Below, in pieces: positions 10,595 to 26,103 of a DNA stretch of 30,477 nt; positions within the stretch are counted from its first letter, which is position 1, and every line of letters begins with the position of its first letter. This DNA is from an uncultured Gammaproteobacteria bacterium (lineage in GTDB: Bacteria; Patescibacteriota; Patescibacteriia; UBA1558; GWA2-36-10). Below the pieces are notes generated by a model that saw nothing but the letters and a program-made list of their open reading frames with translations, had not been told where the DNA came from and made no database searches. The stretch lies in the NCBI GenBank assembly GCA_964455165.1, contig CAYVXP010000001.1:1-30477 (forward strand), read 5' to 3'. Made by a program: the position numbers and the translations under genes.

Positions 10595-12316
10595 TTAATC
10601 TTTTACTTTGCCAAATACTTCTTGGACCGAGGTCAGTCCTTCGAGAGCTTTGAGTAAGCCGTCTTGTAGCATGGTGATCATACCATTTTTTACGGCTATT
10701 TTTTCAATCTCATATTCAGAAACATTACCAGCTAAGATGAGCTTTTCTATCTCTGGTGTCATCATAAATATCTCATAGATACCCACTCGTCCTTTGTAGC
10801 CGAGATTGTGACATTTGTCGCAACCTTTGGCTTGGAAAAATTTTAGGTTATTGATATCAGCTACCGAGTGTCCTGATTCCGGAGCGATAGTACTCAGGGT
10901 GTTTAATACTTCTGTTGTTGTAGTTGTGTCTATAGTATTGTCTTCTATTTTGCAATATGGACAGAGTCTTCTGACTAGACGCTGACCAATGATAGCATCC
11001 AAAGATGGTGCCAACAGGAAAGACTGTACACCCATAGCAAGGAGACGGGGTATAGTAGCGGCCGCTGAGTTGGTGTGCATGGAGCTGAGCATCAAGTGTC
11101 CAGTCAAGGCAGCATTGATAGCCACATCAGCCGTTTCTAGGTCGCGGATTTCACCAACCATGACAATGTCAGGGTCTTGACGCAAGATGGCGCGCAAGCC
11201 ACGGGCAAAAGTGTAGCGAGTATTTTTTTCGTTTTCAGATTTATTGTCTGTGCTAGATTTGCTTTCTACTTGGCTTTGGATGATACCAGGGAGTTTGTAT
11301 TCGATTGGGTCCTCGAGAGTGATTATTTTTGTTTCTGGGCGATTGAGTTTATTCAAAATCGCATAAAGCGTAGTAGTCTTACCAGAACCAGTCGGACCAG
11401 TGGCGATTAGCATGCCATTGGGCTTGGTCATTTGTTTGGCTAGGTCATTGTAGGCCTTACCCTTCAAACCTAGCTCATCAAACTGTAGGCCAGCACTAGA
11501 GGCGCGGAGTAAACGCATAACAATACTTTCTCCATATGCTGACGGTATGATAGAGACGCGGACATCAACCTTGTCACTAGTCAAAGTGATTGAGAAGCGA
11601 CCATCTTGTGGTTTGTTGCCAGTGTTGAGTTTTAACCCGGCTAGTAGCTTGATACGCGAACCTATTTTTTCATTAGCCTCTTTGGGCATGGAGAGGGCAT
11701 TGTAGAGAGCGCCATCGATACGAAAACGAACTTTGACATCATTTTCTTCGGCTTCAATATGAATATCAGAAGCTAAAAATTTTAGACCAGCAGCGATTAC
11801 TAGGTTGATAGCTTCAGTTAGACTAGTTTCTTTGACTAGGTTTTGTAAAGAATCAAAGTTTGTTAATTTTTCATCAAATTTTGCTAAGGCTTCTTCGGTG
11901 ATATTGATGCCCTCGAGGTGAATGATAGTGGGTATCTTGGCGTAGATCTTAGCGGCTAGTGCCAAGCTGTTTTCCGATATCATATATACTTTGACGCGGG
12001 CGTGGTGATTGTCTCCCAGCTCTTTAGCTAGATTGGATACTTGCGGGTTGCCAGGATTGAGAGAGGCGAGACGAATTTCTTCGCCAGTAAAGAGAAAACA
12101 AATAGTTTGCAAAGCTTCAGCTTGTTCTTCGCTTATTAATTTTAGGGCATCCTGAGAAATAGGAAACTTATCGAGATTGATATAAGACAGACCAATGGCA
12201 GTGGCTTTTTTTTCTATTTCATTTTCCTTTTCTTTGTTAGCCAGATCACTCAGCTTGCTACTTAGTTTTTGAGTGACTGCATCAGAAAATGGTTTAGTTT
12301 TTTTTGGGTCGTCCAT
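10595..12316 (-). CDS. pilB: GspE/PulE/PilB family type IV pilus assembly ATPase
   Basis: ASDIHIE, PQDGRF, GPTGSGKTTTLY, LEDPIEY, LRQDPDIVMVGEIRD, AALTGHL, CxxC pairs, GYKGRVGIYE. Confidence 0.92.
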   Translation of the reverse strand: MDDPKKTKPFSDAVTQKLSSKLSDLANKEKENEIEKKATAIGLSYINLDKFPISQDALKLISEEQAEALQTICFLFTGEEIRLASLNPGNPQVSNLAKELGDNHHARVKVYMISENSLALAAKIYAKIPTIIHLEGINITEEALAKFDEKLTNFDSLQNLVKETSLTEAINLVIAAGLKFLASDIHIEAEENDVKVRFRIDGALYNALSMPKEANEKIGSRIKLLAGLKLNTGNKPQDGRFSITLTSDKVDVRVSIIPSAYGESIVMRLLRASSAGLQFDELGLKGKAYNDLAKQMTKPNGMLIATGPTGSGKTTTLYAILNKLNRPETKIITLEDPIEYKLPGIIQSQVESKSSTDNKSENEKNTRYTFARGLRAILRQDPDIVMVGEIRDLETADVAINAALTGHLMLSSMHTNSAAATIPRLLAMGVQSFLLAPSLDAIIGQRLVRRLCPYCKIEDNTIDTTTTTEVLNTLSTIAPESGHSVADINNLKFFQAKGCDKCHNLGYKGRVGIYEIFMMTPEIEKLILAGNVSEYEIEKIAVKNGMITMLQDGLLKALEGLTSVQEVFGKVKD

Positions 12317-12423
12317 GTATTTTTTCTTATTCTATCTTATAATAAATTATACTTTTGCTAAGGTCAAAAGTCAATTAAAAAACCGCTTCCAGTAAATTTT
12401 AGAAACGGTTTTTTTATATTATT

Positions 12424-13398
12424 TTAGCGAGTCAAGGCTGGTAAATTTCTATGAGCAAATCTGTGTATCTTGCTATGACTTGGCGCTTTACCATTGAGGC
12501 GTATAAAAATATTGGCCCATAGTAGATTATAAAAGGCGCCATAAAAAGAAGTAATAAGTAGGAAAGTGGCTATAGCCGCAAAAGAACCGAGGACGACTAA
12601 GAGGTAAAATACTACTGTGCTGACCTGCATCAATAGAGCTAGGACAATAAATGGAGTGAAGATAAAGGCTATGGCGGCCATACCAACCACAATATAAATG
12701 ATAGAGAATAATAATATGGTAATGGCACTTTCTACAGTAATCATCCAGTTGGCTCGAAATAATTCCCAGCCGTTATTAAAAGCTTTCCAGAGCGATTGAT
12801 TATAGATGACTATGTAGGCCATACCAAAGCGAGTAGCAAAAGAAATCATGACCATCAGTGGTATGAGCAGGAAGAATACTATCAAGGAGAGTAGGAAATA
12901 AAAAGTTAGACCGCTGTTTACAACTATCAGGCTAATCATTGGACTGATGACAAAGACAATAAAGAAGTAGCCTATCAGAGTGTTGATTAAATTTATGCCC
13001 AATAGTGGCCAAAATTTTTCTAAAGCCACGGCTAGACTATTATTTACTTTTCCTTTACTGCTTTTTAGATATTTGGAAGCACTGTGTATCAAGGCGCCTT
13101 GTGAGGAGACGGAAAGTATCAGGATGATGGCGTAAATAATGAATAAGCCAATGAGAGTGATATAGCTATCAGCCATAGACCAGTCTATTTGATTCTGACT
13201 GGCTAGTTTTTGTATGCTATTCCACCAAGTGATCACCCAAGAACCCAAGAAATCAGGATTGGCCCCCTGAAAATTAAAGGCCATTTTTATTTCGTTGAAT
13301 CCGAGGAGTGAGGCGAATAGACCAAAAAATAATAAATGAAAGTTTTGTTTAATGATTTGCCACGATTGACTAAAAATTTTACGATAGAATGGTTCCAT
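12424..13398 (-). CDS. Hypothetical polytopic membrane protein
   Basis: 324-aa ORF with several TM segments; resembles conserved CPR membrane proteins. Confidence 0.8.
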   Translation of the reverse strand: MEPFYRKIFSQSWQIIKQNFHLLFFGLFASLLGFNEIKMAFNFQGANPDFLGSWVITWWNSIQKLASQNQIDWSMADSYITLIGLFIIYAIILILSVSSQGALIHSASKYLKSSKGKVNNSLAVALEKFWPLLGINLINTLIGYFFIVFVISPMISLIVVNSGLTFYFLLSLIVFFLLIPLMVMISFATRFGMAYIVIYNQSLWKAFNNGWELFRANWMITVESAITILLFSIIYIVVGMAAIAFIFTPFIVLALLMQVSTVVFYLLVVLGSFAAIATFLLITSFYGAFYNLLWANIFIRLNGKAPSHSKIHRFAHRNLPALTR

Positions 13399-24421: not shown

Positions 24422-24961
24422 ATGAAACCCAAATTACTTCTGCACGCTTGTTGCGCGCCTTGCTCAATCTATGTTTTACAAAAATTGTCCGCTGACTATC
24501 AGGTGACAATTTATTTTTACGATCCTAATATTCATCCAAGGGTAGAGTACAACAAGCGTCGTGATGAATTGAAAAAGTATGCCGATAAATTACAACTAGA
24601 TTTTATGGAGGGGCCATATGATAGCGCCCATTGGCTAGAGCGTACTAGAGGCCTAGAAAATGAGCCAGAAAAGGGTCAGCGTTGCGAAGTCTGTTTTGAT
24701 ATCCGCCTGGCCGAATCAGCTCGCTATGCCAAGGAACAGGGCTTTGATTATTGGGCTACTGTCCTATCAATCAGTCCACACAAGAGTGCCGAGCAAATCA
24801 ATAGGATAGGCACAAGGATTGCTGATATTGTGGGCTTGCCATTTATTACCGCTGATTGGAAGAAAAATGATGGCTTCAAAATAGCTAGTCAGATGTCTAA
24901 GGAGGAGAATTTTTATCGACAAGATTATTGTGGGTGTATTTATTCGAAGAATAATAAGTAA
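24422..24961 (+). CDS. queH: Epoxyqueuosine reductase QueH (DUF208)
   Basis: LLHACCAPCS, YDPNIHP, RCEVCF..RL, SPHK, YRQDYCGCIYS. Confidence 0.94.
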   Translation: MKPKLLLHACCAPCSIYVLQKLSADYQVTIYFYDPNIHPRVEYNKRRDELKKYADKLQLDFMEGPYDSAHWLERTRGLENEPEKGQRCEVCFDIRLAESARYAKEQGFDYWATVLSISPHKSAEQINRIGTRIADIVGLPFITADWKKNDGFKIASQMSKEENFYRQDYCGCIYSKNNK

Positions 24962-24963
24962 AC

Positions 24964-25057
24964 TTCTCGACTCTCCCTCTCCGCCTCCGCCAGTGGGCGG
25001 ATGGCGGATCGGGATCGCTCGAAGAAAAAAAGCCTTTTGTTCGAGCGAAGTCGAGAA
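24964..25057. repeat. Nested palindromic element between queH and queA
   Basis: Outer arms TTCTCGACT|TCGCTCGAA and TTCGAGCGAAGTCGAGAA. The left arm is split by a 42-nt insert (24973-25014) that holds TCCGCC.TCCGCC-AGTG-GGCGGA.GGCGGA. Confidence 0.85.
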
Positions 25058-25065
25058 CTAAATAT

Positions 25066-26103
25066 ATGAACATAAAATTATTTGATTATCATTTACCGGC
25101 AGAGCTCATTGCTCAAAAGCCTAGTAGCCCACGCGATCACTCGCGCTTGTTTGTTTTTGATAAGGTAAGTAAAAAAATACAGCACAAGCATTTTTATGAT
25201 TTAGCCGATATGCTAGGAGCTGATGATGTCCTAGTGCTCAATGAAACTAAAGTTTTCCCAGCCCGACTGCAAGCAGTCAAAAAAACTGGCGGTATTTTAG
25301 AAATATTTTTGTTACAAGAAATAGCGGCCGATAGCTATCAGGTTATGGTCGGCGGTCGGCGCTTTGCTGTAGGTGATAAAATAGATTTTGCTAGGAATTT
25401 TTCCGGTGAATTCATCAAACAAGAAAAAGATAATATTTGGCAGATCAAATTCAATGTCTCCGGGCGGACTTTGGACAAAAAAATAGAGCAGCATGGACAG
25501 ACACCTTTGCCGCCATATATCAAAGCCAAAGATACCAAGGCCGTCCGCCAGCGTTATCAGACTACTTATGCCAAAAACAGAGGATCAGTAGCTGCGCCGA
25601 CCGCCGGACTACATTTTACCCCTCAGTTGCTAAAAAAATTAGAAAAAAAAGGTGTCCAAATTTTCAAAGTCACTCTCCATGTAGGCCTAGGTACTTTTGC
25701 GCCAGTGACGACTACTGATATCACTCAGCATCATATCCACCAAGAGTGGGTAGAGATAGATCCGCAGACAGCCAAGGCTTTGAATCAATTAAAAAAGCAA
25801 GGTAAGAATATCATTGCTGTCGGTACAACCTCTGCTCGTAGTCTAGAAGCCATGAGCAATTCCCGTGGTCAGCTCCAGAGTGGAGCTAAATGGGTTGATA
25901 TTTATATTTATCCTGGTTACAAATATCGCTTTGTTGATGAACTGATTACCAACTTTCATTTGCCCAAGAGTTCGCTATTATTTATGGTCTCAGCCTTAGC
26001 TGGTAGGCAGGCTATTATGGATTGCTACAAGCTAGCGATCAAACAAAAGTATCATTTCTTTTCTTTTGGTGATGCTATGATGATTGCCAAAAACCGCCTC
26101 TAA
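25066..26103 (+). CDS. queA: S-adenosylmethionine:tRNA ribosyltransferase-isomerase
   Basis: FDYHLPAELIAQKP, LNETKVFPARL, PLPPYI, YQTTYA..GSVAAPTAGLHFT, LHVGLGTF, TNFHLPKS, FSFGDAM. Confidence 0.98.
   Translation: MNIKLFDYHLPAELIAQKPSSPRDHSRLFVFDKVSKKIQHKHFYDLADMLGADDVLVLNETKVFPARLQAVKKTGGILEIFLLQEIAADSYQVMVGGRRFAVGDKIDFARNFSGEFIKQEKDNIWQIKFNVSGRTLDKKIEQHGQTPLPPYIKAKDTKAVRQRYQTTYAKNRGSVAAPTAGLHFTPQLLKKLEKKGVQIFKVTLHVGLGTFAPVTTTDITQHHIHQEWVEIDPQTAKALNQLKKQGKNIIAVGTTSARSLEAMSNSRGQLQSGAKWVDIYIYPGYKYRFVDELITNFHLPKSSLLFMVSALAGRQAIMDCYKLAIKQKYHFFSFGDAMMIAKNRL

Follow-up and report, generated by a model that had tools for sequence, protein, structure and literature searches.

Nested MITEs and Rickettsia palindromic elements are non-autonomous palindromes that insert into one another and into genes, and free-standing GIY-YIG homing endonuclease genes are exemplified by the Seg proteins of T4-like phages. 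Also akin to the element described here are the REP, BIME and REPIN elements of Proteobacteria with their RAYT transposases (PMC3116915, PMC3733652). Like it, they consist of short palindromic units between genes, of which two inverted types form a long hairpin, and they share arrays with conserved linkers, compensatory stem changes and co-transcription with neighbours (PMC3116915, PMC3733652). Rickettsia palindromic elements (RPE) are also mentioned in PMC3733652. A further parallel lies in mitochondria: yeast GC clusters and fungal double-hairpin elements are cited in PMC2800124, on mitochondrial repetitive hairpin-forming elements. Here too GC-rich single, double or triple hairpins sit in AT-rich compact genomes, in spacers and tolerant parts of genes and RNAs, differ between close taxa and have no known function (PMC2800124). 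No description of the sequences reported below was found in the literature searched, in which exact strings returned unrelated primers only.

The element lies between queH and queA in the window, the whole 30,477-nt stretch of DNA analysed, which belongs to a source genome of 788,920 bp in 131 contigs (37.6% GC, 91.6% complete). It is built of two outer arms, L and R, of which L is interrupted. The pieces named in a preliminary description of this DNA, their coordinates, the 42-nt insert and the 8-nt gap before the queA ATG were all found in place:

24422 to 24961, + strand: queH (epoxyqueuosine reductase QueH), upstream gene (Pfam PF02677, 236 bits; ORF list)
24964 to 24972, + strand: first half of the L unit, TTCTCGACT, 5' strand of outer stem P1
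24973 to 25014, + strand: 42-nt fill of the L-unit central slot, side hairpin P2 (from sequence and fold)
24974 to 24979, + strand: 5' part of the nested second unit (TCCC stem and TC), shell of the TCCC-TCGACTACGCTC-GGGA hairpin family
24980 to 25008, + strand: 29-nt GC hairpin module (TCCGCC twice, loop AGTG, GGCGGA-T-GGCGGA), dispersed as a unit
25009 to 25014, + strand: 3' part of the nested second unit (TC and GGGA)
25015 to 25023, + strand: second half of the L unit, TCGCTCGAA, 5' strand of inner stem P3
25024 to 25039, + strand: 16-nt tip of the L-R hairpin, with AAAA/TTTT pairing
25040 to 25057, + strand: R unit without fill, 3' strands of P3 and P1
25066 to 26103, + strand: queA, downstream gene (NCBIfam QueA, 448 bits)

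The R unit, TTCGAGCGAAGTCGAGAA, is the exact reverse complement of the joined left halves, and a repeat search of the window recovered the same arms. The 42-nt insert reads, in order, C, TCCC, TC, TCCGCC twice, AGTG, GGCGGA, T, GGCGGA, TC and GGGA. Upstream, the queH stop codon lies 2 nt from the element. The arms are bordered by a C at 24963 and a C at 25058, the closing bases typical of L-type and R-type units, respectively.

One dominant three-way junction was predicted for positions 24964 to 25057, with the outer stem P1 (9 bp), the side hairpin P2 formed by the insert and the inner stem P3 (9 bp plus AAAA/TTTT). The RNA fold reached −59 kcal/mol (z −8.57; none of 200 shuffles was as stable). 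Folded as single-stranded DNA, both strands are predicted to adopt the same shape, at −38 kcal/mol (z −9.8) for the plus and −37.5 kcal/mol (z −8.1) for the minus strand, and the 42-nt fill alone gave −17.6 kcal/mol as DNA (z −5.1). The palindrome is thus nested, as the preliminary description had it, but forms a Y with a side hairpin in its left arm instead of three concentric layers.

The letters were checked independently against Logan contigs from lake-water metagenome runs. Contigs of run X2 (24921 to 25262) and run X3 (24825 to 25043) showed no differences from the window, and one of run X4 (24928 to 25107) showed a single difference and no gaps. Since three independent lake metagenomes agree, an assembly artefact is ruled out for the queH-queA palindrome, and the nested sequence on which the preliminary description rested is supported.

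Both arms belong to a dispersed repeat family whose core is TCGACT|NCGCTCGA and whose closing stems vary and covary. The pattern was detected in 25 of the 39 species genomes of the taxonomic family, far above a reversed-pattern control, and further copies lie in the source genome at C8, C11, C19, C94 and C18. L-type units have the closing bases C..G and extra letters between TTCTCGACT and TCGCTCGAA; R-type units have G..C and no extra letters. The two types alternate in inverted orientation with conserved linkers. Over 14 nt only, TCCGCCTCCGCCA also matches the 3'-terminal part of a tRNA-Ser gene (C98), which is likely a coincidence given so short a match.

The central slot of the L unit is the variable part of the family. 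Among 34 distinct units, 8 nt was the commonest content (17 units); the slot was empty in two (G008:C43 and G022:C19), held 10, 12, 13, 14, 19, 20, 21, 30, 37 or 43 nt in others and 42 nt in the window. Every fill begins with C. The 8-nt fills have the form C+NN+N3+N'N' with four complementary pair types (GC/GC, GT/AC, AC/GT and CC/GG), so the smallest fill is already a tiny palindrome, and the longer fills are GC hairpins. The covariation of the 8-nt fills, together with the conserved core, could reflect selection on folded DNA or RNA and not a mutational process. Module boundaries do not share one bond; in some units the fill is added to the centre of the core, and in others it takes the place of that centre. 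Neither a target-site duplication nor any other footprint of insertion was seen for these elements.

Between sister species, it is precisely this slot that differs at orthologous loci. The source C8 copy and G005:C15 have near-identical flanks and slots of 8 and 30 nt, respectively. At the C11-type locus, upstream of a gene starting MENIIRLSVSEAAKLFGV, the slot holds 8 nt in the source (C11), 21 nt in G001:C95, where the fill is a TCCC-stem unit, and 37 nt in G002:C3. Change in these elements occurs at hairpin tips. Uninterrupted forms and partly filled ones, whose complete absence would have counted against the preliminary description, do exist at other loci, and the site at which it saw the left arm interrupted is a true hot spot. 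Its further step, that pre-existing hairpins are targeted repeatedly, goes beyond this, as targeting and survival at tips alone leave the same pattern; in a compact genome, survival only at tips, as the only harmless places, could mimic targeting.

The outer part of the fill, TCCC-TC..TC-GGGA, corresponds to the shell of the nested second unit, a very common one with the consensus TCCC-TCGACTACGCTC-GGGA. The pattern TCCCTC..TCGGGA occurs in 32 of the 39 family genomes. The second unit shares its 12-nt core with the R unit but not its closing stem, and forms of it enlarged by 8 nt as well as self-nested forms exist (e.g., of the latter, G018:C7:44172); units inside units were seen at G004:C1 as well. 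In G001 (C95) and G002 (C2:30825) the shell alone occupies the L slot, which is the intermediate state between the 8-nt slot and the 42-nt slot of the window. In the window, the 8-nt centre of the second unit is replaced by the 29-nt module.

This 29-mer is itself dispersed. A search of 86 genomes of the order found it in six, against none for the reversed control: G005 has four copies, two of them with the AGTG loop of the window, G044 has nine, G002 one with a single mismatch, G007 a one-mismatch variant, and a copy in G006 is without the T bulge. Other genomes carry it in more than 120 stretches, which come from numerous Patescibacteria lineages and from some MAGs whose labels differ and are unverified; the loop was AGTT in 43 of 82 cases. 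Its contexts include tips of other palindrome families, tips of terminator-like hairpins and a tRNA D-loop, and native flanks pair with each other better than re-paired ones (Mann-Whitney test, p = 9e-6). In the tRNA case (L089, G005:C46:13836-13864) the module sits in the D-loop of a tRNA gene copy beside an intact-looking similar tRNA. An L arm with a 29-mer-type fill and no shell is seen in L174. The two innermost layers, read in the preliminary description as separate insertions, are rather one ready-made module with a T bulge, and hence not local events.

An alternative is that the palindrome grew in place, by template switching or fold-back, slippage of the 6-7-nt TCCGCC/GGCGGAT repeats and quasi-palindrome correction, with no module imported. 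Its arms are indeed tandem 6-mers and 7-mers, a triple form with three units per arm exists at G044:C5, L174 shows a tandem duplication of the left arm only, and the fill lengths form a near-continuous series that starts from the tiny 8-nt palindromes. The triple form and the one-sided duplication imply that doubling by nesting or slippage may once have occurred, not at this locus, and the wide spread of the 29-mer could in part come from repeated formation. However, in all those unrelated contexts the module keeps its T bulge and, for the most part, its loop, the AGTG loop is common to the window and two G005 copies, and the TC..TC mismatch of the shell is found in free-standing units too. 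Such identical letters are not expected from independent local growth. The whole composite arm is, moreover, present at a second locus. We consider growth in place unlikely as the full account, while growth through replication errors probably contributes.

The second locus was recovered from runs X2 and X3, whose contigs carry the same L arm with its 42-nt fill (3-4 substitutions, no gaps) behind an R-type arm and linker and not behind queH, so that the site is non-allelic. The composite arm was therefore probably not built at queH-queA, and the preliminary view of the spacer as the place where the insertions were recorded probably does not hold. Together with the 8- and 21-nt states of the C11-type locus, the second copy suggests an arm assembled stepwise somewhere and then copied whole. 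Retrieval of metagenome contigs by QueA gave 21 loci with no close allele of the spacer, the nearest carrying a G002-type element, and at the queH-queA locus the contigs of four runs held the identical sequence and no partly filled allele, although such contigs drop rare variants. As the spacer thus offered none of the intermediate strain variants hoped for, the order of local events is drawn from other loci.

The L and R arms are tied to a nuclease gene in sister genomes. In G002:C2 an L unit (12133-12158) is followed by a 91-residue GIY-YIG gene (12166-12438, − strand) and an R unit (12487-12504), and G004:C3 repeats this layout. With its leader, the gene takes about 320 nt where the window has the 16-nt tip, and at the tip of the L-R hairpin a clean indel of that length separates gene-bearing from gene-less forms. 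The gene at G002:C2:30920 (a pseudogene) and those at G016:C3 and G022:C19 also adjoin L/R-type arms; all five genes of the close clade (at least 74% identity) do so, and more distant clades often lie near related core units. A general link was rejected, as only 3 of the 31 best-scoring GIY-YIG loci of the family have L/R-type cores nearby; it holds for particular clades. Most GIY-YIG genes adjoin another palindrome family, GTCAT..ATGAC. Among solved structures, the nearest relatives of the 91-residue protein are the UPF0213 proteins 1zg2 and 1ywl. The genes have a patchy distribution, include pseudogenes and may occur in several copies per genome.

The copy in the window has no GIY-YIG ORF, and no gene of the L/R-linked clade was found in the 91.6% complete source assembly. 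The two GIY-YIG genes that the source genome has adjoin the other hairpin family; both are followed by Y-shaped GTCAT..ATGAC palindromes (C64:720-860 and C79:1800-1900). At source C90, the orthologue of the gene-bearing locus of G002 and G004, an unrelated Y palindrome was found and no gene-less L-R pair, and no orthologous pair of gene-bearing and gene-less forms was obtained. The spacer palindrome at C90:290-420 is of the AACCCCCT.. type, which also occurs in the queH-queA spacer of G003. Since the arms lack a gene in the window and bracket a nuclease gene in sister genomes, the window copy is read as an empty or miniature form of the hairpin that carries a selfish nuclease cassette.

As with MITEs, the ends of the element are shared with a longer, gene-bearing form, here the L/GIY-YIG/R arrangement of G002:C2 and G004:C3. 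It differs from nested MITEs and RPE in its units of 16-60 nt, against about 100-150 nt or more, and in having no terminal repeats with target duplications: no direct repeats border it, and the partner gene encodes a UPF0213-type GIY-YIG nuclease and not a transposase. The small stand-alone gene of the relatives behaves like selfish DNA, as GIY-YIG homing endonuclease genes do, but its product of about 91 residues is a catalytic domain that lacks a DNA-binding extension, the gene occupies the tip of a conserved palindrome, and the window copy has lost the gene or never had it. GC-rich hairpins in AT-rich spacers that vary among relatives (37.6% GC genome; sister spacers differ) match mitochondrial GC clusters, from which the element is set apart by its bacterial host, modules spread across many lineages, systematic nesting at tips and the tie to a nuclease gene. 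The likeness is one of behaviour only, since the two kinds of host are unrelated.

Three nested repeat families, graded fills, a slot that changes between orthologous loci and an association between arms and nuclease gene are established by these comparisons. Taken together, they make it reasonably probable that positions 24963 to 25058 represent a gene-less, REPIN-like inverted doublet, a nuclease-carrier hairpin whose L slot nests a TCCC unit that in turn holds the dispersed 29-mer.

Inverted doublets of dispersed palindromic units, borne out here by the source copies, the 25 of 39 genomes and the doublet fold, and conserved linkers would also fit an ordinary REP or REPIN moved by a RAYT-like Y1 transposase of the source genome. 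Such a gene exists (Y1_Tnp, C60:3678-4259; Pfam 30.9 bits), although its NCBIfam REP_Tyr_transpos score of 66 bits is below the 80-bit cut-off, and most R units contain GTAG. This tetranucleotide, however, has a central position in the R unit (..GCGTAGTCG..) and is not placed at its foot, where REP elements carry their GTAG or CGTC tag, and the window copy reads GAAG; the conserved part of the present family is the loop or core. The C60 gene is flanked by a different palindrome, AACCTTCGAGGTT, and was not found in six sister genomes that carry L/R arms, including the L/R-richest, G002 (19 matches) and G004 (13). The nuclease gene lies inside the doublet, whereas the Y1 transposase of REP systems lies beside it, and one unit type has a slot that takes further hairpins. 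Mobilization by this transposase is accordingly very improbable.

The RAYT-like gene (193 residues; C60:3536-4257, or L031:1321-2043) has AACCTTCGAGGTT palindromes both at its flanks and inside, and within the genus it was found only in the source genome. The same palindrome occurs at C11:1973-2063 and C70:830-860.

If transcribed with queH and queA, the element would form a stable Y in the RNA, its end 8 nt upstream of the AUG. It might then be a cis-acting structure, in RNA or DNA, that is functional in the operon and retained because it affects queA, whose translation the preliminary description thought it might influence. Such a structure could govern processing or stability, brake translation, act as an attenuator or form a three-way junction bound by protein. 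The stability of the fold and its position are in favour, as are family copies 8-16 nt upstream of start codons (window, C8, C11 and C19), one of which, at C11, lies in a 5' leader behind a promoter-like TTGACG-17-TAGAAT site. A single 151-nt contig of the RNA-library run X15 covers 24864 to 25014, which is weak and no proof of transcription because DNA carry-over is possible. The start codon of queA is unpaired in the predicted fold. Against such a role, a search of Rfam 15, preQ1 riboswitches included, gave no match to the element at gathering or permissive thresholds; all matches within 24900-25120 had E of at least 0.24 and scores far below cut-offs, and within the window only a tRNA reached its gathering score. 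A terminator scan found none at the element; the hairpin is followed by CTAAATAT and no U-tract. A weak promoter-like match overlapping the queA start codon was discarded, being not above shuffle expectation.

Comparison of the spacer between genomes points the same way. The adjacency of queH and queA holds across the family. The spacer is nearly absent in distant genera (0-40 nt) and is, within the genus, occupied by a different palindrome family in every species. G005, G001 and G006 share another composite palindrome there, with backbones 87% identical that differ mainly by indels at hairpin tips; G001 has a 16-nt TCCGCC hairpin where the other two have 7 nt. That hairpin keeps the CGGAG of the replaced 7 nt, as growth in place would have it. 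Elsewhere, L/R copies adjoin unrelated genes in either orientation relative to transcription. The element is thus not a queA-specific device and is probably a passenger at queA, and a dedicated cis-acting role in this operon appears quite unlikely.

In the queH-queA spacers of G002 and G007 the GTCAT..ATGAC family was found. In a relative (L117:1440-1500, metagenome contig ERZ795059 NODE-57668), queH is cut to its last few codons between a NUDIX gene and queA, an apparent queH deletion.

Hairpins are repeatedly gained or replaced at tips, whereas the mechanism is a matter of inference. In a gene-less nuclease-carrier doublet of the kind proposed above, modules would enter at hairpin tips by copy-and-insert or replacement, perhaps starting with a structure-specific nuclease that cuts extruded hairpins or cruciforms, and the composite arm would then spread as a unit. 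Two observations favour copy-and-insert: module copies in unrelated contexts are identical in every letter and have no homologous flanks, and these same palindromes carry a minimal GIY-YIG nuclease. A bolder version is conceivable but doubtful: hairpin tips would be specific sites of homology-independent movement of hairpins into hairpins, with the tip-riding GIY-YIG nuclease opening hairpins into which mini-hairpins of 16-29 nt are copied or ligated. If true, this would produce Russian-doll palindromes, and their modules, which would rank with the smallest mobile DNAs yet proposed, could pass between many Patescibacteria and perhaps reach other phyla as well.

The genomes of ultra-small bacteria contain hardly any spare DNA, yet tiny GC-rich hairpins colonise their spacers, some genes and tRNAs. 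The queH-queA locus displays the grammar of these elements clearly, with a nuclease-tied carrier palindrome, a fixed hairpin-accepting slot and a 29-nt module found across many lineages, and in this ultra-small lake bacterium it offers a clear case of tiny selfish hairpins stacked one within another. If active, the process would alter leaders and gene ends rapidly, cause assemblies to break and possibly provide a new route of movement for very small DNA.

The uL30 gene was not found in the source genome, which fits Patescibacteria, as the genome otherwise looks. L154 (G044:C17) comes from the same taxonomic family as the window and carries the public label 'uncultured Gammaproteobacteria bacterium'; public labels of several module-bearing MAGs may be unreliable.

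Other palindromes were noted in the source genome. A 30-nt double hairpin (CCCGCC-N3-GGCGGG followed by TCCGCC-N3-GGCGGA) occurs at 488-517 of the window, C2:5548-5577, C23:7247-7277 and C29:4668-4698, apparently within coding regions. A multi-layer palindrome at C11:2060-2215 has a GGCGCGGTGG..CCACCGCGCC stem that encloses a GTCATTGCGAG..CTCGCAATGAC element with further hairpins. At C33:3233-3282, a GC-rich palindrome, GGCCGACCTTCGAGGTCGG..CGACCTCGAAGGTCGGCC, lies inside an apparent UvrD/PcrA-type helicase gene and may be an in-frame hairpin insertion.
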